15,050 nt of DNA. Source: a virus. Lineage: Duplodnaviria; Heunggongvirae; Uroviricota; Caudoviricetes. Positions 829 to 13,683 of the stretch are shown piece after piece. Where the stretch lies: positions 1 through 15,050 of IMG/VR virus record IMGVR_UViG_2713896729_000010. One strand, 5' to 3'. Each line of letters opens with the position of its first letter. The stretch's first letter is position 1. The position numbers and the translations under genes are program-made. A model generated the notes under the pieces. That model saw nothing but the letters and a program-made list of their open reading frames with translations. It was not told the origin of the DNA and ran no database searches.

Positions 829-1839
<1,011 letters not shown>

Positions 1840-1915
1840 AACCCTTGCTGCGTCTGGAATGTCGTTTTCCATGCTTTTGATGACCGTTCATCACCCTTCC
1901 AGTTTTTCGCGGTTT

Positions 1916-1970
1916 TGTGTATTGCAATGTGTATTGCAAATTGGCGATCGGGATGGGTGTGTATTGCAAA
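1916..1970 (+). repeat. Three direct copies of GTGTATTGCAA, candidate integrase arm-type binding sites
   Basis: tgtgtattgcaa (1916-1927), tgtgtattgcaaa (1928-1940), gtgtgtattgcaaa (1957-1970), between the core and the int start. The same motif recurs near attR. Confidence 0.6.
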
Positions 1971-1987
1971 TCTCTTGAGGGCTTTTA

Positions 1988-3229
1988 ATGGCTATTGAAA
2001 ACAAACTCAGTGACAAACTGTTAAAGAGTCTTGTCGGAAAACGGCAGGACAAACAAAAAACAATAGCGGATGGGCGCGGGTTGTCTGTGCGTGTAAGCAT
2101 GGTTGGGGGGATCAGCTTTGTTTTTTACTATCGTCTTGGTGGCAGGGAATCCCCTCCGGTATGGCTTACACTTGGTCGCTATCCTGACATGTCTCTTGCA
2201 ACGGCCAGGCGCATGCGTGATCAGTGCCGTGAATGGCTGGCTGAAAATCTGGACCCCCGCAGGCAAATAAAACTTGCTGCCGAAAAAACTATGCAACCAG
2301 TGACCGTAAGGGATGCGCTGTTTTACTGGTACGACAATCACGCCACAACAGCCAGAAAAGAGCATGAATATTTAATAAAACGATTTGAAAAGCATATCTT
2401 CCCCTATATCGGTGATATGGCTATAGAACAGTGCAAATTACACACATGGCTTACCGTCTTTGACAGGATCAAAAAAAATGCGCCTGTTATGTCTGGTGCA
2501 ATTTTTCTTGATATCAAACAGGCGTTGCGTTTTTGTCGCGTCAGGCAATACATCGCGTGCGATCCCTTTGGAGATATTAACGTAAGTTATGTCGGGCGCT
2601 CATCCGGTATAAGGGATCGCGTTCTTAATATCAATGAAACCGCTGATGTATGGTCTTATGCTTACGGTAATAATTTGCTAACTCTGTCATCAATATATAA
2701 CCGAAGAATAATGGTTATCTGCCTGGTGTTTGGTTGCCGACAGCAGGAGGCGAGGCTATCCACCTGGGACGAATGGGATTTAAAAAACTGGGTATGGACA
2801 GTCCCAAAAGAGCACAGCAAAAACAAGGAGGCTATAGTAAGGCCTGTTCCTGACGGAATAAAACAATGGATCGTTAATCTTTACGCAGAAACAAAAAATC
2901 GCGGTTATGTTGTCGGTTGTGCTTTGCAAAGGGCGACAATAACAGGGGCTGCAAACAGAATATGCAGGCGTCTTGGTCATGATACTAATGGCTTGTGGTG
3001 CATACATGATTTCAGGCGCACATTTTCCACTACGCTTAATGATATGGGGGCGGATCCTTATATTGTCGAACTTCTTTTAGGTCATAAAGTGAAAGGGGTT
3101 GCTGGTGTTTACAATAAAAGCAGGCATATAAAGAAAAAACTTGAGGTGCTTAATATGTGGGTTAATTACCTTAATACGATAGCAGGATTTAACAACAACG
3201 TTATCGAGCTTAATAAAGAGGTGGTGTGA
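1988..3229 (+). CDS. int: Tyrosine site-specific integrase, P4-like family
   Basis: 413 aa. N-terminal arm-binding-like region (GRGLSVRVSMVGGISFVFYYRLGG...YPDMSLATARRMRDQ). C-terminal catalytic motifs CRQQEA (R), HDFRRTF (HxxR) and GVYNKS (Y nucleophile). SD gaggg 6-7 nt upstream of the ATG. Confidence 0.95.
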   Translation: MAIENKLSDKLLKSLVGKRQDKQKTIADGRGLSVRVSMVGGISFVFYYRLGGRESPPVWLTLGRYPDMSLATARRMRDQCREWLAENLDPRRQIKLAAEKTMQPVTVRDALFYWYDNHATTARKEHEYLIKRFEKHIFPYIGDMAIEQCKLHTWLTVFDRIKKNAPVMSGAIFLDIKQALRFCRVRQYIACDPFGDINVSYVGRSSGIRDRVLNINETADVWSYAYGNNLLTLSSIYNRRIMVICLVFGCRQQEARLSTWDEWDLKNWVWTVPKEHSKNKEAIVRPVPDGIKQWIVNLYAETKNRGYVVGCALQRATITGAANRICRRLGHDTNGLWCIHDFRRTFSTTLNDMGADPYIVELLLGHKVKGVAGVYNKSRHIKKKLEVLNMWVNYLNTIAGFNNNVIELNKEVV

Positions 3230-3230
3230 T

Positions 3231-3488
3231 ATGGCAATTTATTCTCTTGTTGATGAAAACGATTTGCGCACAATGAAGGACATTGATCGGTTCATTCGTG
3301 AAAAAGAGTGCATAGCACTTACCACGCTGGCAAACTCAACACGCTGGAAAATGGAGCAGGCAGGTAAATTCCCGCGACGTATCAAGATCGGTGAACGTGC
3401 TGCAGGGTATCGACTTTCAGAGGTTCAGGCATGGATCCGTGGTGAGTGGCATCCTGGATGGAAACCTGGAAAAACAAAACAGCAATAA
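3231..3488 (+). CDS. alpA: AlpA-family HTH regulator / excisionase-like protein
   Basis: 85 aa. Translation ...IALTTLANSTRWKMEQAGKFPRRIKIGERAAGYRLSEVQAWIRGEW resembles the AlpA/Vis helix-turn-helix. Start is 1 nt after the int stop, so likely translationally coupled. Confidence 0.85.
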   Translation: MAIYSLVDENDLRTMKDIDRFIREKECIALTTLANSTRWKMEQAGKFPRRIKIGERAAGYRLSEVQAWIRGEWHPGWKPGKTKQQ

Positions 3489-3501
3489 CCAGTAAATAAT
3501 G

Positions 3502-3524
3502 CCCCTCATCACGAGGGGTTTTTT
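3502..3524 (+). terminator. Rho-independent terminator after alpA
   Basis: CCCCTC-ATCAC-GAGGGG stem-loop followed by TTTTTT. Confidence 0.75.
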
Positions 3525-3544
3525 GTCTATAAGGTAAAAACGCG

Positions 3545-4123
3545 ATGAATAAAAATATTGCCGTGACGGGCAAGGGGTACGCTCGTCCAGTGAAAAAATT
3601 CTGCGATATTCGTGATCTCGTCGTTCTGCGCTTTGATAGTGTGAACGTTCGTGTGGTGTATCTGAACGGCGATCCGTGGTTTGTTGCAAAAGATGTTTGT
3701 GCTGCGCTGGAACTAACCAATTCGCGTACGGCGTTGCAGATGCTTGATGATGATGAAAAGGGAGTAAATTTAACTTACACCCCAGGAGGAAATCAGAATA
3801 TGAGAATTATCTCTGAGTCAGGTTTCTACAAACTAATAGCCCGCAGCCGCAAAGCAACGACGCCTGGCACATTTGCTCATCGTTTCAGTAACTGGGTATT
3901 CAGAAATGTGATACCAGGTATCAGAAAAACGGGGACTTATGGTATCCCGTGGGGTGCATTACAGGATTTTTCCCGCCGTAAAGAGCAATATCAAATAAGT
4001 GCCAGCGAGAAGGGGAGGGAGCTACAGGCATGTAAGCGCAAAAAGCGTGAGCTGGAGGAAGAAGAAAAAACGCTGATACGTGAATATCAGCCTGAGTTTT
4101 ACTTTGGTAACCGCATTCAGTGA
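3545..4123 (+). CDS. Bro-N domain protein (antirepressor-like), with a charged coiled-coil-like C-terminus
   Basis: 192 aa. N-terminal region VRVVYLNGDPWFVAKDVCAALELTNSRTALQMLDDDEKGV...RIISESGFYKLIARSRK fits the Bro-N fold as I recall it. C-terminus is K/E-rich (KRKKRELEEEEKTL). Confidence 0.75.
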   Translation: MNKNIAVTGKGYARPVKKFCDIRDLVVLRFDSVNVRVVYLNGDPWFVAKDVCAALELTNSRTALQMLDDDEKGVNLTYTPGGNQNMRIISESGFYKLIARSRKATTPGTFAHRFSNWVFRNVIPGIRKTGTYGIPWGALQDFSRRKEQYQISASEKGRELQACKRKKRELEEEEKTLIREYQPEFYFGNRIQ

Positions 4124-4132
4124 CAAAACAAA

Positions 4133-4153
4133 GGCGACCGCAAAAGGGTCGCC
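4133..4153 (-). terminator. Rho-independent terminator for the leftward regulator operon
   Basis: GGCGACC-gcaaaag-GGTCGCC hairpin. The T-run (tttgttttgtca) lies on the minus-strand 3' side, so it terminates leftward transcription; there is no T-run on the plus side. Confidence 0.65.
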
Positions 4154-4219
4154 AGTGGGAACAAGGGAAAACAAAAGCATCACCAACAATGCCACATTTG
4201 CGGCTGGTGGGCAATGTGA

Positions 4220-4399
4220 TCAGTCAGATTTGGTTCGTTCCAAGGTTTGCAACGAGAGCTTTTTCCTGTGCTCTTTAAGGAATTTCTCAAGAGCAAACGA
4301 ACAAGGTGCGAATCTTTCTGATTCATGTTCATGCGCTATATTTTTGCGTCGTCTCTTACGAGTTGGTGATGGTGTTTTGGTTGATTCTGTGTCGCTCAT
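4220..4399 (-). CDS. Small basic hypothetical protein (59 aa), second gene of the leftward operon
   Basis: Not in the supplied track (below its size cut-off). Hand translation MSDTESTKTPSPTRKRRRKNIAHEHESERFAPCSFALEKFLKEHRKKLSLQTLERTKSD. SD AGGA 7 nt upstream of the ATG. Lies between the 101-aa gene and the minus-strand terminator. Confidence 0.4.
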   Translation of the reverse strand: MSDTESTKTPSPTRKRRRKNIAHEHESERFAPCSFALEKFLKEHRKKLSLQTLERTKSD

Positions 4400-4456
4400 G
4401 GTGCTGTCCTGTAAAGCAATGCGCCTGCGTTCCTCAAACTATGGCGCTGATATTGG

Positions 4457-4762
4457 CTATTCATGCTCTTTGACCTTGCGTCGCTGGAGTTCTTCACGCG
4501 CGACGGTGACGAGTTGCCCGATCTCCTCGGCTGCTTTGATGCCGATTTGTTCGACCTTAGCCAGGGCATCCAGTGACGACACAAGGGGATTTTCTCCGCT
4601 GCCTTCTGCTTGGCGGCGGGCTATTTCTCCGCGCATGGCGGTTACGATAAATCCGGCATTGCTTTCACCGTCCAGCTTAACGGATTCCATCCCTTGCATA
4701 ACATCTAGTGGGACTCTGACAGTTGTCAGTTGTGATTTTGCGTTTTTGTTAGCCGTTGCCAT
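4457..4762 (-). CDS. Hypothetical protein (101 aa), candidate island repressor/regulator by position
   Basis: Strong SD AGGAG 8 nt upstream of the ATG. Divergent from the rightward early operon across a palindromic operator. No family recognised from sequence. Confidence 0.7.
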   Translation of the reverse strand: MATANKNAKSQLTTVRVPLDVMQGMESVKLDGESNAGFIVTAMRGEIARRQAEGSGENPLVSSLDALAKVEQIGIKAAEEIGQLVTVAREELQRRKVKEHE

Positions 4763-4823
4763 TTCTGAAACTCCTAATCATCGGTGTGTTTCAGTATACA
4801 CAAAAAAAGAAATACAAAAAGCC

Positions 4824-4861
4824 TTGACGTGTGTTTCATGCGCTCATAACATGAAACACAC
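4824..4861 (+). promoter_or_regulatory. Candidate sigma-70 promoter of the rightward early operon overlapped by a perfect 12-bp inverted-repeat operator
   Basis: -35 TTGACG (4824-4829), 17-bp spacer, -10 TAACAT (4847-4852). Inverted repeat GTGTGTTTCATG (4829-4840) / CATGAAACACAC (4850-4861) with 9-bp spacer. Extra half-site GTGTGTTTCAG at 4784-4794. Confidence 0.55.
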
Positions 4862-4952
4862 CGAAAGGATTGTTGAAATACAAAGAGCAACGCCCCGCAG
4901 TGCTGGGAACACATACGGGGCGTCTAACCAACAACGTAAACTAGGAGCCGTT

Positions 4953-5150
4953 ATGGTTGCTGTAAATCATATACCACACCTTGTACACACACAAACGGCC
5001 TTTGTGTGGCGTTTTCTGGCACTGAGTGCCGGAGAATCTCAAATCATCCACGTAACCGCCTGGACGGAACGCGAAGCGCGTAGCCGTTGCCCGTCCGGTT
5101 GTGTTGCTGTATTCGCTGCAAAAATCCGCCAGGGAGTGAGTCATGCTTAA
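4953..5150 (+). CDS. Hypothetical small protein (65 aa), first gene of the rightward early operon
   Basis: SD AGGAG (4944-4948) 4 nt before the ATG. Translation MVAVNHIPHLVHTQTAFVWRFLALSAGESQIIHVTAWTEREARSRCPSGCVAVFAAKIRQGVSHA. This is the C-terminal part of the track's 4080..5150 ORF, which I reject as a whole. Confidence 0.55.
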   Translation: MVAVNHIPHLVHTQTAFVWRFLALSAGESQIIHVTAWTEREARSRCPSGCVAVFAAKIRQGVSHA

Positions 5151-5328
5151 AACCTTCCGTGTATTTGCCCGAGCTGTTAACCCAATAGGCCACACAATTG
5201 GTATCGCTCAGAATGTGAAGGCTGTTAATGTTCAGACGGCTATTGCTGCGGTGAGAAGCGAATCATCAGAATATGGCTTATCACAAGTCATTATTTCAGC
5301 AGTGTATGAATTAAAAGAGGTGCATTAA
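5143..5328 (+). CDS. Hypothetical small protein (61 aa)
   Basis: Start overlaps the upstream stop (ATGCTTAA); SD gggag upstream. Confidence 0.5.
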   Translation: MLKTFRVFARAVNPIGHTIGIAQNVKAVNVQTAIAAVRSESSEYGLSQVIISAVYELKEVH

Positions 5329-5519
5329 TGCAGGAAATTACATTACACGAAGCCGCTGAACGTGCGCACCAGACAGAAATTATTTGCCGCCTTCTTGAGG
5401 TATACCCGAACAAAATTACAGATGCTGATATATCCGCACTGGCGAGCCTACTGGCGCGTCTTTCGGGAAGTGTCGCTAGTTTTTTGATTGAGGAAGAAAG
5501 TAAGCTGGTGGGGGATTAA
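5328..5519 (+). CDS. Hypothetical small acidic protein (63 aa)
   Basis: TAATG stop/start overlap with the upstream gene; SD aagagg upstream. Confidence 0.55.
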   Translation: MQEITLHEAAERAHQTEIICRLLEVYPNKITDADISALASLLARLSGSVASFLIEEESKLVGD

Positions 5520-5741
5520 ATGAATACAGAACGGGAAGTCTTTTTTAAATTGTTAGCATGTGCAGAAAGTTCATTAACTTTAAATAATTCAGCAAAAGCA
5601 ATATTAAATATGTGGCTTGATTGCATAAATGACAATGAAGATGCAAATATTGCTTATGGCCTGTTGTCACTTATTGATGAATCAGCAGAAAAACTCAATG
5701 ACGCAATAAATAGTGCCCTGCTATCAAATAAGTCGAGTTAA
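5520..5741 (+). CDS. Hypothetical small acidic protein (73 aa) in an AT-rich segment
   Basis: TAAATG overlap with the upstream gene. Local base composition is visibly AT-richer than its neighbours, suggesting a recently acquired cargo gene. Confidence 0.5.
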   Translation: MNTEREVFFKLLACAESSLTLNNSAKAILNMWLDCINDNEDANIAYGLLSLIDESAEKLNDAINSALLSNKSS

Positions 5742-5758
5742 GTCGAGGAATAAATAAT

Positions 5759-6058
5759 ATGGAAATGAAAAATTCTGGCTTTATTGCCAGCGGCCCCGCT
5801 CGACCTGAATTTATGAACGGCGATATTTACCGCGATAAATACGGCGGCACGGTAACGATTAAAGGCGTGGCAGAACGGCGCATCACTTACCGCCGTGAGG
5901 GGTATAGCTATGACTGCGTGATGCCTGTTTATCAGTTCCGGCGTGATTTTCCCCTGGTATATGCCGCACCCCGCAGTAAGCCCATCAGCAGGGAAAAAGC
6001 GTGGGGAAATATCCAGAAAATGAAAACCATGATTAACGGATTCAGAGGTAAAAAATGA
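5759..6058 (+). CDS. Hypothetical protein (99 aa), translationally coupled to the helicase gene
   Basis: SD gagga upstream. Stop overlaps the helicase start (ATGA at 6055-6058). Confidence 0.6.
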   Translation: MEMKNSGFIASGPARPEFMNGDIYRDKYGGTVTIKGVAERRITYRREGYSYDCVMPVYQFRRDFPLVYAAPRSKPISREKAWGNIQKMKTMINGFRGKK

Positions 6059-7809
6059 AACTGGCACCGAACGTAAAACAGCAGTCACGCGGCATAAAAC
6101 ACAAAGGAACAGAAGTCATTATTTTTGCGGGTAGTGATGCCTGGGCACACGCGAAACAATGGCAGGAACATGATGCGCGTATGGCCGGAGATAATGAGCC
6201 TCCTGTGTGGCTTGGGGAGCAGCAGCTATCCGAACTGGATAATCTGCAAATTGTGCCGGAAGGCCGAAAATCAGCACGCATATACAGGGCCGGATATCTT
6301 GCGCCTGTAATGATAAAGGCGATTGGTCAGAAGCTGGCGGCAGCAGGCGTACAGGATGCAAATTTTTATCCTGAGGGTATGCACGGCCAGGAGGTGCAGA
6401 ACTGGCGCGAATATCTGGCCCGTGAACGCCAGAATCTTTCTGATGGTCTGGTCATTGAGCTTCCGGTAAAGCAAAAGGCGCAACTTTCGCAGATGGCGGA
6501 CAGTGAGCGCGCGCAGTTGCTTGCCGATCGCTTTGATGGCGTTTGCGTACATCCTGAAAGTGAAATCGTTCACGTATGGCGCGGCGGGGTATGGTGTCCG
6601 GTCAGCACAATGGAACTTAGCCGCGAAATGGTGGCGATCTATTCAGAGCACAGGGCCACTTTCAGCAAGCGCGTAATCAATAACGCCGTGGAAGCGTTAA
6701 AAGTTATTGCCGAACCAATGGGCGAGCCGTCTGGCGATTTGCTGCCGTTCGCCAATGGTGCGCTTGACCTGAAAACGGGGGAATTTTCCCCGCACACGCC
6801 GGAGAACTGGATCACCACGCACAACGGCATTGAGTACACGCCACCAGCACCAGGGGAGAACATCCGCGATAACGCGCCAAACTTTCATAAATGGCTTGAG
6901 CACGCAGCCGGAAAAGACCCGCGCAAGATGATGCGTATATGTGCCGCGCTGTACATGATTATGGCGAACCGGTACGACTGGCAGATGTTTATTGAGGCCA
7001 CCGGAGACGGCGGGAGCGGTAAAAGTACATTCACACACATAGCCAGCCTTCTGGCAGGGAAACAGAACACGGTAAGCGCTGAAATGACATCGCTTGATGA
7101 TGCTGGTGGACGTGCGCAGGTTGTCGGGAGTCGTCTTATCGTCCTGGCTGACCAGCCGAAATATACAGGCGAAGGAACGGGCATCAAGAAAATCACAGGC
7201 GGCGACCCCGTGGAAATTAACCCGAAATATGAAAAGCGTTTCACGGCGGTAATCAGGGCGGTGGTGCTGGCGACCAACAACAACCCGATGATATTCACCG
7301 AACGGGCCGGAGGTGTGGCACGTCGTCGCGTGATTTTCCGTTTCGACAATATCGTCAGTGAGGCCGAAAAAGACAGGGAGCTACCGGAAAAGATTGCGGC
7401 TGAAATCCCCGTTATTATCCGCCGATTGCTGGCGAACTTTACCGACCCTGAGAAGGCACGGGCTTTACTACTGGAACAGCGTGACGGTGATGAAGCACTG
7501 GCAATAAAGCAACAGACGGATCCGGTTATTGAGTTTTGCCAGTTCCTGAATTTTCTGGAGGAAGCGCGCGGCCTGATGATGGGTGGCGGTGGTGATTCAG
7601 TGAAGTACACGACCAGGAACAGCCTTTACCGCGTCTATCTGGCGTTTATGGCATACGCGGGCAGGAGCAAACCGCTAAACGTGGCTGAGTTCAGCAAGGC
7701 CATGAAGCCAGCGGCGAAAGTTTACGGGCATGAATATATTACGCGAAAAGTTAAGGGAGTAACGCAGACCAACGCAATTACAACAGACGATTGCGACGCG
7801 TTTTTATAA
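6055..7809 (+). CDS. Replication initiator / SF3 helicase (D5_N-like domain plus NTPase, resembling the P4 alpha C-terminal half); no clear primase motif seen in the N-terminus
   Basis: 584 aa. Walker A GDGGSGKST and Walker B-like LIVLADQ. The conserved region before the NTPase resembles the D5_N / P4-family C-terminal domain. Iteron origin immediately downstream. Confidence 0.88.
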   Translation: MKLAPNVKQQSRGIKHKGTEVIIFAGSDAWAHAKQWQEHDARMAGDNEPPVWLGEQQLSELDNLQIVPEGRKSARIYRAGYLAPVMIKAIGQKLAAAGVQDANFYPEGMHGQEVQNWREYLARERQNLSDGLVIELPVKQKAQLSQMADSERAQLLADRFDGVCVHPESEIVHVWRGGVWCPVSTMELSREMVAIYSEHRATFSKRVINNAVEALKVIAEPMGEPSGDLLPFANGALDLKTGEFSPHTPENWITTHNGIEYTPPAPGENIRDNAPNFHKWLEHAAGKDPRKMMRICAALYMIMANRYDWQMFIEATGDGGSGKSTFTHIASLLAGKQNTVSAEMTSLDDAGGRAQVVGSRLIVLADQPKYTGEGTGIKKITGGDPVEINPKYEKRFTAVIRAVVLATNNNPMIFTERAGGVARRRVIFRFDNIVSEAEKDRELPEKIAAEIPVIIRRLLANFTDPEKARALLLEQRDGDEALAIKQQTDPVIEFCQFLNFLEEARGLMMGGGGDSVKYTTRNSLYRVYLAFMAYAGRSKPLNVAEFSKAMKPAAKVYGHEYITRKVKGVTQTNAITTDDCDAFL

Positions 7810-7824
7810 TTTTTTGTAAAAGCC

Positions 7825-8042
7825 ATCTACCCCATCTACCTGAACAAAATAAACGCATATTATTCAACATGATAAGTGGGTATAGGGCTAGGTAGAAGGC
7901 TAATAAAAGCTCTCTACCTCTTCTACCTGATTTTATCAGTTTCAGGTAGCAGGGTAGACGGCAGGTAGAGGAGTCAAAAAGCTATCTACCCGCTGAAAGC
8001 CGCGCCATTACTGACATGATGAGCATTCGGGTAGATGGGTAG
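7825..8042. repeat. Iteron-type replication origin: at least 11 copies of GGTAG / CTACC arranged as inverted clusters
   Basis: ccatctaccccatctacc (7823-7840); ggtag at 7891, 7945, 7953, 7964, 8030, 8038; ctacc at 7914, 7923, 7986. Terminal clusters are mutual reverse complements (catctacc / ggtagatg). Lies directly after the initiator gene. Confidence 0.8.
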
Positions 8043-8157
8043 AGGGGGGGAGGCACAACTAAAAACTTTTTAAACGAGGGGGGGGTGAAAATAAATGCGC
8101 ATACATAAAAATCACTTAATAAACATGCCAGCCGAAAACATGAATCAGGGGCGACAA

Positions 8158-8409
8158 ATGACCAAAATTCGCAGAGACAGAACACAGGCAAAATATAAAG
8201 CGTTAGACATGACAGAGCTTTCCTTAAAGGTGGCAATCAAAGCGATAGACCACCACACACGGGCAGGATACGCGAAGGAACATCCCGACCTGATAAGCGC
8301 ATTCATGACCACAGCAGCGGCAAACTTTGCCACGCTGACAGAACGGGAGATTGCCGAAGCGGAACAGGTGACAACCATCAATGTTAAAACCGGAGAGCAG
8401 ACAGCATGA
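8158..8409 (+). CDS. Hypothetical protein (84 aa; start uncertain, alternative starts at 8139 or 8095)
   Basis: SD agggg 6 nt before ATG 8158. Stop overlaps the SSB-like gene start (ATGA at 8406). Confidence 0.55.
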   Translation: MTKIRRDRTQAKYKALDMTELSLKVAIKAIDHHTRAGYAKEHPDLISAFMTTAAANFATLTEREIAEAEQVTTINVKTGEQTA

Positions 8410-8855
8410 CAGCACAGATAGCGGCTTACGGGCGGCTGGTGGCTGACCCGCAGTTAAAGACCACCAGCAAAGGGACACAAATGGCGATGGCGAGTATGGC
8501 GGTTCCCCTGCCGTGCAGCCAGGCAGATGACGGAACGGCGACGATGTGGTTATCCGTCCTGGCGTTTGGCAGACAGGCCGACGCACTGGCAAAACACCAC
8601 AAAGGCGAACTGGTGAGCGTGGCGGGTAACATGCAGGTAAGCCAGTGGACAGGCCAGAACGGCGAAACGCGGCGGGGCTGGCAGGTTATCGCAGACAGCG
8701 TAATCAGTGCGCGAACGGCGCGACCGGGCGGCAAAAAAGGCCAACAGGGGCAGGCTACTGACGAACTGAACAGAGCAAAACAACAGGCAGATCAGCAAGG
8801 AAGCCAGCCACCAGTGGGAGATAATGAGCAATGGGGAGATGATATCCCGTTTTAA
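8406..8855 (+). CDS. ssb: Single-stranded DNA-binding protein homologue with SSB-like acidic C-terminal tip
   Basis: 149 aa. OB-fold-like N-terminus (GRLVADPQLKTTSKGTQMAMASMAV...WLSVLAFGRQADALAKHHKGELVSVAGNMQVSQW), Gly/Gln-rich linker, and C-terminus ...WGDDIPF resembling the DDDIPF tip of bacterial SSB. Confidence 0.8.
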   Translation: MTAQIAAYGRLVADPQLKTTSKGTQMAMASMAVPLPCSQADDGTATMWLSVLAFGRQADALAKHHKGELVSVAGNMQVSQWTGQNGETRRGWQVIADSVISARTARPGGKKGQQGQATDELNRAKQQADQQGSQPPVGDNEQWGDDIPF

Positions 8856-8873
8856 ATATTGCCAATAAAAAAG

Positions 8874-8897
8874 GCCGGAAAAAATAAATTTTCCGGC
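8874..8897 (+). other. Perfect hairpin between the replication and capsid modules
   Basis: GCCGGAAAA-aataaa-TTTTCCGGC, 9-bp stem. No T-run after it, so not a canonical terminator on the plus strand. Confidence 0.5.
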
Positions 8898-9071
8898 ATG
8901 CTACATAAATCCCGACCAAAGGGAGTGAAGATATTAACACTAATTGTCCGCACTGAAGTTGTCACCCCAAAACTTTATACAACATTGCACTCGGTTGCAT
9001 GTGTTCGCATGACAAATATCGGTGGTAGCATATATCCACAATTATTTTTAATGAATGCAAAGAGGATGCGT

Positions 9072-10112
9072 ATGGTTGATTTATATTCGCCTACTCAGCT
9101 TGTACAGGTGGTTAATGCTGTAGATGTACAAAAACAACTAAATGCGTTGTTTACCAGTTTGTTTTTTACTCGCTCGGTAATGTTTGAATCGCGCGATATT
9201 ATTCTTGATACAATCGACGATCCAAATATCCCAATTGCAGCGTTTTGTTCTCCTATGGTGGGTAGTAAAGTTTCACGTGACGAAGGGTACGAATCAAAAA
9301 CAATTCGTCCAGGCTATATGAAGCCGAAAAGCAGCATTGATCCAAATAAGTTAGCTGTGCGCCCTGCTGGTGTATCACCTGAGCAATACAATGCTTTTGG
9401 GGCACGTAATATTAAAGTTAAACAGGCGATTGTAAATCAGGCTAAAGCTATTCGTGCACGTATTGAATGGCTTGCTGTTCAGGCAATCACAACGGGGAAA
9501 AATATCATTGAGGGCGATGGTATTGAACGTTATGAGCTGGACTGGAATATAAAACCACAAAATATCATCACTCAGTCTGGCGGTACTGAGTGGTCAGGTA
9601 AGGATAAAGAAACTTTTGATCCAAATGATGATATTGAGAGCTACGCAGAATTTAGTGAGGGCGTCACTAATATCATCATTATGGGTGGTAATGTATGGAA
9701 GAAATACCGTTCATTCAGAGCGATAAAAGAGGCTTTGGATACCCGTCGTGGTTCTAATTCCGAACTGGAAACGGCCCTTAAAGACCTTGGTGATTCGGTG
9801 AGTTTTAAAGGGTATATGGGCGATGTTGCGATTGTTGTTTACAGCGGGCGTTATACCGACGAGGACGGAACAGAAAAACATTTCCTTGATCCTGATTTGA
9901 TGGTGCTTGGCAATACGGCTCTTCAGGGGATTGTCGCCTATGGCGGTATTCAGGATCCGGAGCTAATCCGAATGGGGCTGACTAAAGCCGAACTTGCACC
10001 GAAAAACTATATTGTGCCTGGTGATCCGGCTATTGAATATGTGCAGACACATTCAGCACCACAGCCAATACCGGCCCGCATCAATCGTTTTGTTACCGTT
10101 CGCATTGGCTAA
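9072..10112 (+). CDS. Major capsid protein, homologue of lambda gpE
   Basis: 346 aa from ATG 9072 (SD aagagg 8 nt upstream). Collinear similarity to lambda E as I recall it: N-terminus MVDLYSPTQL versus MSMYTTAQL; NIITQSGGTEWSGKDKETFDPNDDIESYA versus NITQSGGTEWSKRDKSTYDPTDDIEAYA; LDTRRGSNSELETALKDLG...GDVAIVVYSG nearly identical. The track ORF starts at an upstream TTG (8859), which I reject. Confidence 0.9.
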   Translation: MVDLYSPTQLVQVVNAVDVQKQLNALFTSLFFTRSVMFESRDIILDTIDDPNIPIAAFCSPMVGSKVSRDEGYESKTIRPGYMKPKSSIDPNKLAVRPAGVSPEQYNAFGARNIKVKQAIVNQAKAIRARIEWLAVQAITTGKNIIEGDGIERYELDWNIKPQNIITQSGGTEWSGKDKETFDPNDDIESYAEFSEGVTNIIIMGGNVWKKYRSFRAIKEALDTRRGSNSELETALKDLGDSVSFKGYMGDVAIVVYSGRYTDEDGTEKHFLDPDLMVLGNTALQGIVAYGGIQDPELIRMGLTKAELAPKNYIVPGDPAIEYVQTHSAPQPIPARINRFVTVRIG

Positions 10113-10121
10113 GGGGGAGCA

Positions 10122-10463
10122 ATGGCTACTCATTACACTGAACTCATGGCTGGCACTGAAGCACTGGTGACTACGCTGGGGATATTTTCAGCTAATAAAG
10201 GGGTAATTCCTGCATTTACGCCACTGATGCAGGAAGATGCAACAGGTGCACTGGTGGTATGGGATGGTTCGAGCGTAGGTAAAGCGGTTTATGTTTCCGC
10301 TGTACAAATCGACACAGCGAAAAAAACACAGGCACAGGTTTATAAGACAGGTGTTTTAAATGTTGATGCTCTGAACTGGCCTGAGTCTGTAAAAGAACTG
10401 TCGGCAAAGGTTGCCGCGTTTGTTGGCTCAGGTATTTCTGTTCAGCCGCTGGCTCGTGTGTAA
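10122..10463 (+). CDS. Head decoration protein, homologue of lambda gpD
   Basis: 113 aa, SD gggggag. Similar to lambda D as I recall it: TPLM..D....LVVWDG...YK.G......WPE......AF.G..IS. Confidence 0.85.
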   Translation: MATHYTELMAGTEALVTTLGIFSANKGVIPAFTPLMQEDATGALVVWDGSSVGKAVYVSAVQIDTAKKTQAQVYKTGVLNVDALNWPESVKELSAKVAAFVGSGISVQPLARV

Positions 10464-10474
10464 AGGGGGATACA

Positions 10475-10858
10475 ATGCAGAATCATTACAATGACCTTAA
10501 GCCAATTGCCGAAATGATGTATCCGGATCCAGCAGTAGAGGAATTAAAGGCTATTGCTGACAAAATGCGTTTAAGTGAACGCCTTGTTGATATGAATCAG
10601 GTGATGGAACTTACTACCCTTAGCCGTCGCACATTGCTAAACCTTGAGGCTAGTGGAGAGTTCCCGGAGCGTGTGCAGGTTACGGAAGGGCGTAAGGCCT
10701 GGTATTTAAGTGAAGTGATCGACTGGATAAACAATATTCCTCGATCTTCTGAATATTGCCGCGTACCTGTCCCAAAAAAGCCAGATGCGGCGCTATGCCT
10801 CAAGATTGAGCGTGTACGTCGCAATGCACGGGATGGTCGCTATAAGTTGATTGGTTGA
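10475..10858 (+). CDS. Second AlpA-family HTH protein (127 aa, with an N-terminal extension), immediately upstream of cos
   Basis: SD aaggggga. Translation ...MELTTLSRRTLLNLEASGEFPERVQVTEGRKAWYLSEVIDWIN is an AlpA-like helix-turn-helix. Confidence 0.7.
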   Translation: MQNHYNDLKPIAEMMYPDPAVEELKAIADKMRLSERLVDMNQVMELTTLSRRTLLNLEASGEFPERVQVTEGRKAWYLSEVIDWINNIPRSSEYCRVPVPKKPDAALCLKIERVRRNARDGRYKLIG

Positions 10859-10884
10859 TGAAATTAGGGCCCGTTCTGGCTGGC

Positions 10885-10948
10885 GGGTCCTTTCCGGCGA
10901 TCCGGTAGGCTACGGGGCGGCGACCTCGCGGGTTTTCGCTATTTATGA
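10885..10948 (+). other. cos site: lambda-type cosN (12-nt cohesive-end sequence GGGCGGCGACCT at 10915-10926) with lambda-like flanks
   Basis: gggtcctttccggcgatccggtaggctacg|GGGCGGCGACCT|cgcgggttttcgctatttatga agrees almost base for base with the lambda cos junction as I recall it. Sequence downstream (10949-11059), where cosB would be, is unlike lambda. Confidence 0.85.
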
Positions 10949-11059
10949 GCCTTTTTCGGGTGCTGGTGGTGGTTTTGTTGTTCGCTCTATCTCTATGAAT
11001 AAAAAGGAAAAGATAAAGCCAATACACCAACCTGAAACATTACTTAAGTGGGGATATTG

Positions 11060-11530
11060 ATGAAATCGCACCTGATGAACAAAAAAAACATGGCGCAAAG
11101 CTGCCGTGTAAGTGCGACAGCGTTCGACAAGTGGGGAGTGACTCCCGTTGAACGTAAAGGCCGCGAGGCGTTTTATGATGTTGCCAGCGTAATAGACAAT
11201 CGGGTTAGCAATGCAATTAACCAGATTACAGACGACAAAGGCGAGATTGATGATGATGAACTCCTACGAGTCAGGATCAGATTGCTGACAGCACAGGCAG
11301 AGGCGCAGGAGCTTAAAAACGAGCGCGAACGCGGCGACGTTATTGATACAGCGTTTTGTATATACGTGCTTTCAAAATTGGCGAGTCAGATTTCTTCAAT
11401 CATGGACAGCCTGCCGCTTGCCATGACAAGGAAGTTTCCCGACATGAAGCCGTCTATGCTGGATGGACTGAAAAAGAAGTTATCAGAGCCTGTAACGCAT
11501 GCGCAAAACTTGACGAAAACATACCGCTGA
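11060..11530 (+). CDS. Terminase small subunit, homologue of lambda Nu1; the C-terminal Nu1-like segment continues in the -1 frame to 11601
   Basis: N-terminal ..NKKNMAQSCRVSATAFDKWGV aligns with the Nu1 N-terminus (NKKQLADIFGASIRTIQNWQEQG). Central block LTAQAEAQELKNERERGDVIDTAFCIYVLSKLASQISSIMDSLPLAMTRKFP is nearly collinear with Nu1 (LTRAQADAQELKNARDSAEVVETAFCTFVLSRIAGEIASILDGLPLSVQRRFP). Start could also be 11075 or 11090. Confidence 0.85.
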   Translation: MKSHLMNKKNMAQSCRVSATAFDKWGVTPVERKGREAFYDVASVIDNRVSNAINQITDDKGEIDDDELLRVRIRLLTAQAEAQELKNERERGDVIDTAFCIYVLSKLASQISSIMDSLPLAMTRKFPDMKPSMLDGLKKKLSEPVTHAQNLTKTYR

Positions 11531-11612
11531 TGCTGTCCGATTATCTGATGGAAACTGCCGGAAACGTACCGGATAAGTTGCAGCCGAATAAAGATAAGTA
11601 ACGTAGTACGCT

Positions 11613-11894
11613 ATGACTGAATCCGAAATACTGCGATTAATCCGCCGTGCTTGTGGAATCAGCAAGCAGCATGACGAACAGGCCACGCAGCCGGACAGCG
11701 TGACCGCAGATAATTATGTGCGTGTAGTGGCTGAGGTGATGCGCCGTGACGGTATTGAGCTTAACGGCGTGGATATGCGCAACATACGAACAAGAGTCCT
11801 TGAGTTGCTGGCATATCGTCGCCGTTCTCAACAACGGAGGGAGAGCGCGAAAAATACTTACCAGTGGAAGAAGCCGGAACGATTGCGGCGGTAA
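11613..11894 (+). CDS. Hypothetical basic protein (93 aa) downstream of the small terminase gene
   Basis: ORF with Arg-rich C-terminus (RRRSQQRRESAKNTYQWKKPERLRR). Weak SD and no recognisable family. Confidence 0.45.
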   Translation: MTESEILRLIRRACGISKQHDEQATQPDSVTADNYVRVVAEVMRRDGIELNGVDMRNIRTRVLELLAYRRRSQQRRESAKNTYQWKKPERLRR

Positions 11895-12146
11895 CTTGCT
11901 GATATTCCCGATAACGCAAAATTGCGCTGGCTGACTTGTTGCATTGCAAAAAGTTAAGCAGGAAGGCACGGCCTGTAAGATGGGATGCAGTAAGTAGTTC
12001 AAGGCTACCTTGTGCTGGCACGCACAGTTAAGCCGTCGGTGCTGGATATCCCCCACTGGGGGAAAAGCTGGCTACATCCCTCACATCTGAGGACTGATAA
12101 CGCGACATTGCGCTGGCTGGCAAAGTGCAAAATTGCACGATGGCCT

Positions 12147-12290
12147 AACCCATTGATTATTTCGAAAACCTGCAATGCAGGAAATCGGGGAAGTAAGCCT
12201 AAGCTATTGATTGTTTCGAAAACCCCCATTGGGGGATGTCGGGAAAGTAAGACTAACCCATTGATTCTTCCACAATCCTCAATTTGAGGA
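12147..12290. repeat. Tandem ~54-bp repeat, 2.7 copies, each with a different 13-bp palindrome
   Basis: Conserved unit (C/G)C(C/T)ATTGATT.TT.C.A.AA.CC followed by cctgcaAtgcagg (12169-12181), cccccaTTggggg (12223-12235) and cctcaaTttgagg (12277-12289). Confidence 0.75.
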
Positions 12291-12608
12291 GGCCGGAACG
12301 TCTACATAGCTGCATCGCCGTAATGATGATTCAGCCCACCAGCCAAATCAGCACAGCAACGACAGAATAGCCCGACACAGAAAAACCACGAATATGGGGT
12401 TTTTGTTATGACATGGTCATGATGACCACTCATACAAAACAGGTAAAGCCCACCAGCCTGATTAAAGGTTAACCGGAAAAAAGCCAGGTATCCAATCTCG
12501 ATATGGGGATCCCTATATCGACATTAACGCCCACTAAAACTGTGCATATATGCATAGAAAAAGCATCCACCAGCTTTATGACGGATGCCGCTCATCTTAT
12601 AAATAATC

Positions 12609-12630
12609 GTGTATTGCAGTGTGTATTGCG
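12609..12630 (+). repeat. Two further direct copies of the GTGTATTGC(A/G) arm-type motif near attR
   Basis: gtgtattgca (12609-12618) and gtgtattgcg (12621-12630), about 75-95 bp from the right core, same orientation as the three copies near attL. Confidence 0.6.
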
Positions 12631-12703
12631 ACTCCTTTAAACGATAGGTCTGAGCATTCGTAATGTACTGTTTTTAAATTTTATTTTTTCCTGTCTTTTC
12701 ATA

Positions 12704-12716
12704 AAGGCGATGTATG
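12704..12716. repeat. attR core (right copy of the 13-bp direct repeat)
   Basis: AAGGCGATGTATG; phage-identical sequence continues rightward (gtatgccgccaccattgag). Confidence 0.8.
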
Positions 12717-12933: not shown

Positions 12934-12943
12934 NNNNNNNNNN
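12934..12943. other. N10 run, assembly gap or contig join
   Basis: Ten N; flanks are portal gene versus a glutamate decarboxylase fragment. Confidence 0.9.
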
Positions 12944-13063: not shown

Positions 13064-13073
13064 NNNNNNNNNN
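13064..13073. other. N10 run, assembly gap or contig join
   Basis: Ten N. Confidence 0.9.
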
Positions 13074-13673
<600 letters not shown>

Positions 13674-13683
13674 NNNNNNNNNN
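13674..13683. other. N10 run, assembly gap or contig join
   Basis: Ten N; the J frame does not continue across it. Confidence 0.9.

Follow-up and report, generated by a model that had tools for sequence, protein, structure and literature searches.

A bacterial-type SSB with a conserved C-terminal tip, encoded beside the putative replication origin of a helper-embedded PICI

Satellites are otherwise sparing with genes, yet about one in three complete E. coli genomes contains a satellite with an ssb gene kept beside its origin, which raises the question of what the encoded protein does for the island. The question was addressed for one such gene in a window of 15,050 nucleotides, the whole stretch of viral DNA analysed. 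A sequence-only reading of this DNA had described an SSB homologue with a host-like C-terminal tip, and had proposed that it could redirect host replisome factors to island DNA or saturate SSB partners at the expense of the helper.

The gene lies in an island of about 10.9 kb (1780-12711) inside the portal gene of a lambdoid prophage. In complete genomes, the portal gene is found as two pseudogene halves flanking the island, with AAGGCGAT at both junctions. The borders and the leftmost genes are as follows:

1780..1787, + strand, attL core AAGGCGAT, marking the island's left end within the disrupted portal gene of the lambdoid prophage
1988-3229, integrase, at the left end of the island
3231-3488, AlpA-like gene, at the left end of the island
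12704..12711, + strand, attR core AAGGCGAT, marking the island's right end; the reading frame of the portal gene picks up again here

The island presents the features of a PICI, namely an integrase and an AlpA-type regulator at the left, unidirectional genes (nearly all on the + strand), a size within about 10-15 kb, and a pri/rep gene with an iteron origin. The carriage of ssb by a satellite, as first supposed, was thus borne out, the satellite being a helper-embedded PICI. Helper-dependent induction, replication and packaging have been experimentally demonstrated for the relatives EcCICFT073 and 11capE (PMC6092414, PMC10111431). Helper-type lambdoid prophages bear exo/bet/gam beside such islands, for example in CFT073. 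The pair formed by ssb and the small ORF upstream of it was found in 1852 of 5426 complete E. coli genomes, and 2606 of the 2608 places recovered in the E. coli search were chromosomal. Plasmid matches with at least 60% identity to the island SSB amounted to 10 of 839, one of them being a 4.9-Mb record.

The gene itself and its product were assigned by profile searches:

8406..8855, + strand, ssb coding sequence, 149 aa plus stop, ending ...NEQWGDDIPF

PF00436 (SSB, Pfam) matched residues 5-99 with an E-value of 6.4e-16 and 58.7 bits against a cut-off of 26, and PHROG 44, "single strand DNA binding protein", matched the product with an E-value of 7e-40. TIGR00621 (ssb, NCBIfam) scored 67.6 bits against a cut-off of 53.95, with an alignment spanning positions 7-165 of the 165 of the profile; since it runs to the profile end, the tip is included in the family match. 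A stretch matching at 100% in strain JNE23-011 carries the RefSeq label WP_057688280.1, an SSB. In contrast to these matches, NF006533/PRK09010, the NCBIfam model of the enterobacterial housekeeping SSB, gave 23.1 bits, far below its cut-off of 260. As judged from these scores, the island SSB belongs to a subfamily distinct from the housekeeping protein, and ssb is a genuine but ordinary SSB gene, already annotated in databases.

Other origins of the gene were considered. A recent capture of the host ssb was ruled out by the low PRK09010 score and by an identity of 26% between the OB core and that of E. coli SSB, and it is also disfavoured because the Gram-positive and Thermus/Thermotoga PDB matches listed outscore E. 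coli SSB. Derivation from a sequenced phage was rejected, since no match with at least 60% identity was obtained in 50,697 phage records, the matches listed being about 28-31% identical. The antisense ORFs at 8224-8592, 8426-8734 and 8550-8831 were discounted, and with them a spurious ORF or opposite-strand coding, because conservation across genera is seen for the + strand product, which also scores above the family cut-offs. A role as a defence-system component was likewise rejected, as neither the SSB nor the upstream small ORF was matched by a PADLOC model. Two other island proteins showed marginal, sub-threshold PADLOC matches with E-values of about 0.003.

The product is an SSB in which a flexible linker joins the OB fold to a conserved tip at the C-terminus. 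Its three parts are:

8406..8717, + strand, OB-fold ssDNA-binding domain (predicted binding), residues 1-104, from alignments, AlphaFold2 and Foldseek
8718..8828, + strand, junction SARTxRPGG (conserved), then a linker of variable sequence and low model confidence, residues 105-141
8829..8852, + strand, C-terminal tip QWGDDIPF, residues 142-149, with the terminal Phe free and the stop codon next

The structure was predicted with AlphaFold2 using an alignment of 98 sequences, the single-sequence prediction reaching a pLDDT of only 46. The resulting model has a mean pLDDT of 83, with ten-residue block means of 89-97 over residues 1-100, and consists of six predicted strands and a helix at 55-62. 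Confidence is low from about residue 105, with block means of 43-67 over residues 101-149. In a Foldseek search against the PDB, the best 50 matches were all bacterial SSBs, with target-normalised TM values up to 0.79; the best match, 7ym1_B, had an E-value of 1.3e-9 and a target-normalised TM of 0.78. The structure prediction that the sequence-only reading had called for therefore yields a model that superposes on solved bacterial SSBs, and its assignment of an SSB homologue with an OB-fold-like core agrees with the Pfam, TIGR00621 and Foldseek results alike.

The residues expected to contact ssDNA are largely kept. W54, F60 and W88 of E. coli SSB align with W48, F54 and W81 of the island SSB in pairwise and multiple alignments, so that three of the four stacking aromatics appear to be retained; a counterpart of W40 was absent in these alignments, and the loop preceding that position is 5 residues shorter than in E. 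coli SSB. Neither W48 nor F54 varies in a set of 22 relatives. H55 and Y78 of E. coli SSB, which are important for tetramer stability, are replaced by Leu49 and Ser71.

Beyond the OB core, the frequency of the most common residue falls from 0.61 to 0.30. With this low column conservation, frequent indels and low pLDDT, residues 105-141 are predicted to form a disordered linker, and the indels in it account for the family length range of 132-151 aa. The alignment behind both frequencies had been pre-filtered for tip-like endings, so the tip conservation within it is biased, and unfiltered counts were used for the tip. In the unfiltered set of close relatives of at least 125 aa, 104 of 113 end in [ILVM]-P-F, and among representatives of at least 125 aa from clustering at 50% identity, 66 of 107 have a PF or an acidic-plus-aromatic ending. 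The family motif is P-[FYW]-x-D-x-[IL]-P-F at a free C-terminus. Between loci, the codons for the tip Ile (ATC/ATA/ATT) and Pro (CCG/CCA/CCC/CCT) differ synonymously while the residues stay constant. Since the ending is kept in relatives despite this codon variation, the comparison indicates that it is not a chance occurrence.

The C-terminus WGDDIPF had been noticed for its resemblance to the bacterial SSB tail, and both the translation and the extent of the TIGR00621 alignment bear this out. The term "host-like" holds for the last residues only, where aromatic-x-D-x-I-P-F is kept; it does not hold for the OB core, given the identity and PRK09010 score above, nor for the acidity of the tip. 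The last 8 residues include 2 acidic ones in the island SSB versus 4 in E. coli SSB, and most close relatives have 1, their endings being YGDNIPF or YGDGIPF. Other genera have DDEAPF, DDETPF or YDDDF instead, with the Ile replaced or the ending reduced to DDF. In E. coli SSB, the partner contacts that have been studied, including those with chi and DnaG, are made through the DDDIPF tip with its penultimate Pro and terminal Phe (PMC3632105). The low acidity of the tip and the loss of Ile elsewhere suggest that host partners may be bound weakly or selectively.

The position of the gene is as informative as its product, ssb standing immediately downstream of an iteron cluster and a primase/helicase-family gene:

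6055..7809, + strand, P4-family primase/helicase-type replication protein (Rep), 584 aa, with D5_N, DUF5906, Pox_D5 and TIGR01613
7826..8043, no strand, iteron cluster, putative island replication origin, with 10 of the 11 GGTAGA hexamers of the window, in both orientations
8158..8409, + strand, upstream small ORF, 83 aa, hypothetical (RefSeq WP_000161636.1), PHROG 1231 of unknown function
8392..8397, + strand, Shine-Dalgarno GGAGAG for ssb, 8 nt before the ATG and within the 3' end of the upstream ORF, read from sequence
8874..8897, no strand, G+C-rich hairpin, 19 nt past the ssb stop, with an A-run upstream and a T-run on the opposite strand

The total of 11 GGTAGA hexamers in the window was reached in none of 200 shuffles. 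The cluster occupies the position described for the E. coli PICI origin, the origin of EcCICFT073 having been mapped just 3' of rep (PMC6092414). Profile searches of the 584-aa Rep found no Zn-ribbon or Toprim match. On the other side, the hairpin separates the replication genes from the capsid genes.

This arrangement extends well beyond the present island. In 30 loci (window included) from different Enterobacterales species, ssb lies directly downstream of a large co-oriented ORF with primase or helicase domains (Toprim_3 in 24, Zn_Ribbon_Prim in 23, DUF927 in 19, and D5_N/DUF5906/Pox_D5 in 8-9). All 28 intervening stretches examined contain iteron-like repeats, seen as over-represented 7-mers in 3-12 copies, with a shuffle p of at most 0.01 in 27 of them and 0.03 in one; the repeated words vary by locus. 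Throughout the Enterobacterales compared, the order of primase/helicase-type ORF, iteron-like repeats and ssb is thus preserved despite changes in Rep type, in repeat sequence and in the neighbouring small ORF. A small plasmid bears the same rep-ssb module with no helper involved.

The ssb start codon (ATG, 8406-8408) overlaps the stop codon of the upstream ORF (TGA, 8407-8409) as ATGA, the longest version of that ORF beginning at 8095. Together with GGAGAG, the overlap is, as read from the sequence, the classical arrangement for translational coupling. Of the coupling to an unknown upstream gene proposed earlier, the start/stop overlap is therefore present, and the coupling itself is predicted from the layout. 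The upstream partner is conserved only within the Escherichia lineage. A universal two-gene module was rejected, since an ORF overlaps the ssb start in only 11 of 35 loci and these ORFs are mostly unrelated to each other, one having a ProQ/FinO domain.

Taken together, ssb probably encodes a working bacterial-type SSB of the replication module of a Gram-negative PICI. Its most likely role is to coat the single-stranded DNA of the island and to recruit replisome partners through the tip. Upon induction by the helper, the island would excise and its Rep/helicase would open the AT-rich DNA that lies between the iterons. The single strands exposed in this way would be coated by the island SSB, which is presumably a homotetramer and would supplement the host SSB pool, on which the replicating helper would also draw. 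The ...DDIPF tip could then dock onto host SSB partners, in pockets that are hydrophobic with a basic rim. Of these partners, the clamp-loader subunit chi of Pol III and the DnaG primase would presumably matter most, and replisome assembly and priming would then take place on island DNA. Recruitment of DnaG may have special weight here because the island Rep has no recognisable primase domain, and the role of ssb could explain how such an island is primed. The redirection of host replisome factors to island DNA, as originally suggested, is plausible on this basis. Since an EcCICFT073 rep-ori clone maintains a plasmid in DH5alpha and ssb is not named as part of the clone (PMC6092414), the island SSB is, by analogy, probably not required for origin firing.

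The less acidic tip raises the question of whether its partners equal those of the host SSB. One proposal, which we regard as rather doubtful, is that PICI SSBs are partner-selective, their pared-down tip (P-aromatic-x-D-x-I/A-P-F, usually with one acidic residue) having evolved to recruit only their own primase-helicase or a narrow host subset (DnaG, chi) and to avoid repair and nuclease partners. If true, the tip would form a private satellite replication hub competing with the helper for the host replisome.

The physical linkage of ssb to a primase/helicase-type gene in the loci examined and the lineage-specific divergence from DDDIPF (DDEAPF, DDETPF, YDDDF, GDNIPF) could also be read as signs of a tip serving mainly as an adaptor for a partner of the element, either the primase-helicase or the protein encoded by the small overlapping ORF, and not for host proteins. 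There is a precedent in HK620, where the last six residues of the SSB (tail NDYPPF) are needed to load the cognate Sak4 (PMC5928155). Nevertheless, this explanation is unlikely, since the same SSB subfamily occurs beside Reps with Toprim_3/Zn-ribbon/DUF927 or with D5_N/DUF5906/Pox_D5, and several domain compositions beside one subfamily argue against a single co-evolved pocket. Moreover, the upstream ORFs that overlap ssb mostly lack homology from one genus to another.

An accessory role in recombination is quite unlikely. The island SSB would act with helper SSAPs of the Red-beta/RecT type or with host RecO, promoting concatemers or recombination-dependent late replication and so providing the substrate for cos-cut packaging. 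The exo/bet/gam genes beside such islands would fit this, as does the HK620 Sak4 system, in which the SSB tail governs SSAP function (PMC5928155), and matching between SSAP and SSB tail is a theme in recombineering papers. However, no recombinase gene was found within the island in Pfam and PHROG searches, and ssb is conserved beside the origin and not beside any recombination gene.

The second half of the original proposal, that the island SSB titrates host SSB partners or coats helper DNA and so slows the helper, is improbable and was not supported. PICIs generally interfere with their helpers (PMC6092414), and a foreign SSB ending in IPF might in principle compete with host SSB for the pockets of its partners. 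However, a tip of such low acidity would be expected to compete weakly, not strongly, the conserved place beside the origin points to replication of the island itself, and the small plasmid has the rep-ssb module with no helper involved. In EcCICFT073, interference is reportedly due to a TerS-like island protein that redirects helper packaging. An immune-related role, with the SSB as a decoy or trigger for Retron-Eco8 or DARNA, both of which sense phage SSBs, or as a shield of island ssDNA from such sensors, is very improbable, the argument being one of analogy throughout, with PADLOC models matching neither the SSB nor the small ORF and with a conserved position in the replication module.

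As part of a PICI replication module, the island SSB has a close counterpart in EcCICFT073. The SSB of that island (WP_000126698.1; NC_004431.1 1384538-1384948) is an orthologue with 72% identity that ends in YGDDIPF and has 136 aa, compared with 149 here, owing to a shorter linker. The gene order is shared (DUF4222, a 584-aa primase-family gene, iterons, small ORF, ssb and late genes), with AGGTAGA in 6 copies as the iteron, a small hypothetical ORF 66% identical to the one here, and capsid E-like and decoration D-like late genes. In contrast to the present island, which lies within a prophage, EcCICFT073 occupies a chromosomal site, and a PerC-family gene and a further small ORF separate its ssb from the capsid gene. 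The helper-embedded islands of site class B:Phage_portal_2:241 (PMC10111431) are also about 11 kb, co-oriented in a lambdoid portal gene with the att core AAGGCGAT, and share the zones of integration, Bro, replication (Primase, SSB, DUF5906) and late genes. The present island appears to be a member of this catalogued class, no difference having been found.

The finding is therefore already known, through the RefSeq annotation, the EcCICFT073 orthologue and the inclusion of SSB among PICI replication genes in the 2023 HE-PICI survey. In that survey, Tommasini, Mageeney and Williams list SSB in the "replication zone" as a gene family only, without analysis of tip or function (PMC10111431). No functional study of a PICI SSB was found in the literature, and the two experimental papers on EcCICFT073 do not mention its SSB. 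The annotation is thus correct but routine, and its remaining value is as a pointer to the role of SSBs in satellites.

Compared with the chromosomal SSB of E. coli, the island protein shares the OB fold, residues aligned with W54, F60 and W88, a disordered linker and a tip with an aromatic residue (-7), D (-5), D (-4) and I-P-F. It differs in the 26% identity of the OB core, the missing W40 equivalent, the shorter loop, Leu in place of His55, and a linker that is about 20 residues shorter in a four-sequence alignment and not Gly/Pro/Gln-rich. Several conjugative-plasmid SSBs complement E. coli ssb mutants. The SSB of HK620 is likewise an E. coli mobile-element protein, and its tail resembles that of the host while diverging from it, the last six residues being essential for function (PMC5928155), but this tail is NDYPPF and the gene adjoins the recombinase sak4 rather than a replication origin. 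Finally, the Ssb proteins of F-type leading regions are also SSB paralogues on mobile elements of the same hosts, being translocated or expressed in the service of the element's own DNA (PMC8406263). They are encoded in the leading region with psiB/parB and act on incoming ssDNA in conjugation, whereas the neighbours of the island ssb are not the psiB/ardA-type genes of such plasmid regions but rep/ori and the capsid genes.

The island that carries ssb spans 10.9 kb and has AAGGCGAT at both edges (1780-1787 and 12704-12711). Its features are, in order:

1988-3229, integrase, first island gene
after the integrase, AlpA-like regulator
after the AlpA-like regulator, Bro-N protein
after the Bro-N gene, minus strand, YlcI/YnfO family gene
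after the YlcI/YnfO family gene, Icd-like gene
between the Icd-like and Rep genes, three small ORFs, then a DUF4222 gene
6055-7809, after DUF4222, P4-family primase/helicase-type protein (Rep), 584 aa
3' of Rep, an intergenic region, then an 83-aa hypothetical gene, then ssb
8406-8855, plus strand, ssb, 149 residues, C-terminus ...NEQWGDDIPF, then TAA
8874-8897, G+C-rich 9-bp hairpin, 19 nt 3' of the ssb stop, flanked by an upstream A-run and an opposite-strand T-run
9063-10463, 3' of ssb, lambda E-like major capsid gene, then D-like decoration gene
10475-10858, late zone between the decoration and TerS-like genes, second HTH regulator, AlpA/excisionase-type, PHROG 2790
11048-11530, TerS-like gene, RefSeq label 'terminase small subunit'
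after the TerS-like gene, small ORF, last island gene

Complete E. coli genomes contain this island at 98.9-99.9% identity within a lambdoid prophage, where it splits the portal gene into two pseudogene halves, and it is co-oriented with the interrupted gene (window, loci L001 and L002). Of 5426 complete E. coli genomes, 53 contain 80% or more of the island. Insertion in a prophage portal gene corresponds to the 'helper-embedded PICI' layout (PICI, phage-inducible chromosomal island) described by Tommasini, Mageeney and Williams in 2023 (PMC10111431), whose supplementary table includes E. coli elements of 11 kb, class B_Phage_portal_2_241, with an att core identical to that of the window island. 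The satellite setting proposed from the sequence alone is therefore upheld, with assignment to that class. The same paper puts 'Primase, SSB and DUF5906' in the Gram-negative PICI replication zone. The TerS-like protein might be the counterpart of the packaging-redirection protein of EcCICFT073, the model E. coli PICI. The hairpin could act as a bidirectional terminator between the replication and late modules, and the 165 bp between it and the capsid gene are non-coding.

The window has the appearance of a scaffolded or masked draft, since it holds four runs of exactly 10 N (819-828, 12934-12943, 13064-13073 and 13674-13683) and the sequence outside the island is made up of short stretches of prophage that are not colinear with complete genomes, in which terminase genes come before the portal gene. 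The contiguous part is the island only, 1780-12711. A hok/sok toxin-antitoxin module lies at 436-738, left of the first N-run; the Rfam sok antitoxin RNA was matched at 436-588 with 122 bits (gathering score 59), and the last 50 codons of ORF 496-738, MKQHKAMIVALIVICITAVVAVLVTRKDLCEVHIRTGQTEVAVFTAYESE, presumably encode a Hok-family-like peptide.

The identity of the ssb product as an SSB homologue with an OB-fold-like core was borne out by profile and fold searches. Pfam SSB PF00436 matched with E=6.4e-16 (58.7 bits, cut-off 26), NCBIfam TIGR00621 with 67.6 bits (cut-off 53.95) and an alignment extending to the final profile position, and PHROG 44 'single strand DNA binding protein' with E=7e-40. 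AlphaFold gave an unusable model from the single sequence (pLDDT 46) and a pLDDT of 83 with a 98-sequence alignment; in the latter, ten-residue block means were 89-97 within residues 1-100, and the model was of low confidence from about residue 105 onward. Using Foldseek against the PDB, the top 50 matches were all bacterial SSBs, including S. aureus SsbA 7ym1 (E=1.3e-9, target-normalised TM 0.78). Structure prediction, proposed as a check in the sequence-only reading, is thus in agreement with it. The WGDDIPF ending is as that reading described, and of its translational coupling to the upstream gene the layout is present: ssb ATG and small-ORF TGA overlap as ATGA at 8406-8409, with a Shine-Dalgarno GGAGAG 8 nt 5' of the ATG, and coupling may occur.

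The relationship to the host protein is distant. The OB domain is 26% identical to that of E. coli SSB, the protein reaches 23 bits on the enterobacterial housekeeping SSB model, whose cut-off is 260, and the listed Gram-positive and Thermus/Thermotoga SSBs outrank E. coli SSB in sequence and fold searches; a recent copy of host ssb was rejected on these grounds. W48, F54 and W81 are the aligned counterparts of E. coli W54, F60 and W88, whereas W40 has no equivalent, the loop before it being 5 residues shorter, and His55 is replaced by a Leu that is invariant in 22 relatives. A phage lineage was also rejected, with 0 of 50,697 phage records at 60% identity or above and about 28-31% among the matches listed. 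From its distance to the host protein, the island SSB is a separate SSB lineage.

Only ten plasmid records carry an SSB of at least 60% identity. In several small circular records of 10-23 kb (L041 and plasmid search matches H45, H54 and H63-H65), ssb follows a large ORF. L041 (OW969629.1), a 10.6-kb Enterobacter cloacae 'plasmid', has a 951-aa ORF whose function is unannotated and, after it, an ssb of this type truncated to 104 aa, without linker or tip, as well as a serine recombinase gene. Such records may be small plasmids with a shared replicon, or satellites that had excised as circles and were deposited under the name of plasmids.

The C-terminal tip is conserved beyond the linker, which varies in length and sequence (family lengths 132-151 aa). 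The [ILVM]PF ending is kept in 104 of 113 close relatives (unfiltered sets), and after clustering at 50% identity, 66 of the 107 representatives end in PF or acidic-aromatic residues; many of the others look like truncated or frameshifted predictions by length and ending. The tip Ile and Pro codons show synonymous variation between loci. The tip described as host-like shares with host FDDDIPF the features of the family motif P-[FYW]-x-D-x-[IL]-P-F, namely the aromatic at -7, Asp at -5 and IPF, but it is less acidic, with 2 acidic residues in the last 8 (1 in most close relatives, YGDNIPF or YGDGIPF) against 4 in host SSB, and it sits on a divergent core. In other genera, where the host tip is DDDIPF, the ending of the relatives drifts (DDEAPF, DDETPF, YDDDF, HEDDF).

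For the surroundings of ssb, 36 loci with SSB relatives were fetched from different species, mostly Enterobacterales, and 30 were compared, window included. In these 30 loci a large co-oriented ORF precedes ssb, the gap being mostly about 170-760 bp and in one case 1.4 kb. The large ORFs contain Toprim_3 (24 loci), Zn_Ribbon_Prim (23), DUF927 (19) and D5_N/DUF5906/Pox_D5 (8-9). All 28 stretches examined between the large ORF and ssb hold an over-represented 7-mer in 3-12 copies (shuffle p ≤0.01 in 27, 0.03 in one), and the repeat word varies by locus (AACCAAC, AGACAAC, CGGGTTA, GTAGACA, ATCCCTA, GGTAGA), although some 7-mers recur in several of the loci L003-L036. In the window, 10 of the 11 GGTAGA hexamers lie at 7826-8043, between rep and the small-ORF/ssb pair, and a count of 11 was reached in none of 200 shuffles. 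Since a large ORF and over-represented 7-mers precede ssb across the loci compared, the order primase/helicase-type gene, iteron-like repeats, ssb is a conserved architecture, within which Rep type, repeats and neighbouring small gene vary. If repeat words track Rep type, these loci would be a ready data set for Rep-iteron specificity.

The small-ORF/ssb pair, labelled 'hypothetical protein | single-stranded DNA-binding protein' in RefSeq, is carried by 1852 of the 5426 complete E. coli genomes, at most 6 times in one genome; 2606 of its 2608 places are chromosomal. In L034, from the metagenome-assembled genome of a gammaproteobacterium, a ProQ/FinO-domain protein (Pfam E=4e-12) is encoded by the ORF at 7720-8001, the stop of which overlaps the start of ssb, and the ssb frame is open for just 50 codons, counted from the matched start; the overlapping ORFs of other loci encode unrelated hypothetical proteins.

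Neither Zn-ribbon nor Toprim was matched in the 584-aa Rep (EcCICFT073 Rep is likewise 584 aa), while both are present in longer relatives of 780-950 aa. Its N-terminus aligns solely with the C-terminal part of their Toprim region, the conserved acidic motif AADND is replaced by FAGSDA, and the EGLATAL segment upstream of AADND has no counterpart in the alignment. Rep may have lost primase activity and act as a helicase/initiator, and priming of the window island and EcCICFT073 may therefore depend on host DnaG.

In E. coli SSB, the partner contacts studied so far are mediated by the DDDIPF tip, its penultimate Pro (the residue altered in ssb-113) and its terminal Phe; among the partners, the Pol III chi subunit and DnaG primase compete for the tip in the primase-to-polymerase switch (PMC3632105). 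Combining these contacts with the island anatomy, the most likely function of the island SSB is to coat island ssDNA and tether host replisome components to it. The protein would cover the unwound origin and lagging-strand DNA, its tip would hold host replisome components there, and it would top up the host SSB pool on which the replicating helper also draws. Host DnaG may prime island DNA by docking at the tip, since an SSB tip is a docking site known for DnaG. The observation on ssb is confirmed, and the first interpretation is supported in part.

Alternatively, the tip would serve a partner encoded by the island itself, as the NDYPPF tail of HK620 SSB loads its cognate Sak4 (PMC5928155). 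Lineage-specific tip drift fits this, but the SSB accompanies Reps of differing domain composition and upstream ORFs that are not homologous, which argues against a single co-evolved partner. A recombination accessory role alongside helper Red functions is possible, though gene position gives it no support. Helper interference through titration of SSB partners is unsupported, and the less acidic tip speaks against strong competition; interference by EcCICFT073 is reportedly due to redirected helper packaging. An immune decoy or trigger role, whose sole basis is that phage SSBs are sensed by Retron-Eco8 and DARNA, would sit poorly with 0 PADLOC model matches for the SSB.

No experiments on any PICI SSB were found in the literature searched. 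It is rather improbable that the pared-down tip makes PICI SSBs partner-selective hubs for satellite replication. The gene is of a known kind, in a type of satellite that has been catalogued, and is both annotated and very common. EcCICFT073 has the same gene arrangement around ssb, with a 136-aa SSB (tip YGDDIPF, 72% identical to the window SSB) and a small ORF 66% identical to the window's. Fillol-Salom et al. 2018 (PMC6092414) mapped E. coli PICI origins just 3' of rep, as iteron sets around an AT-rich stretch, the position of the window GGTAGA cluster. Since their cloned EcCICFT073 rep-ori segment was maintained in DH5alpha, apparently without ssb, the island SSB is more likely a booster than a requirement.
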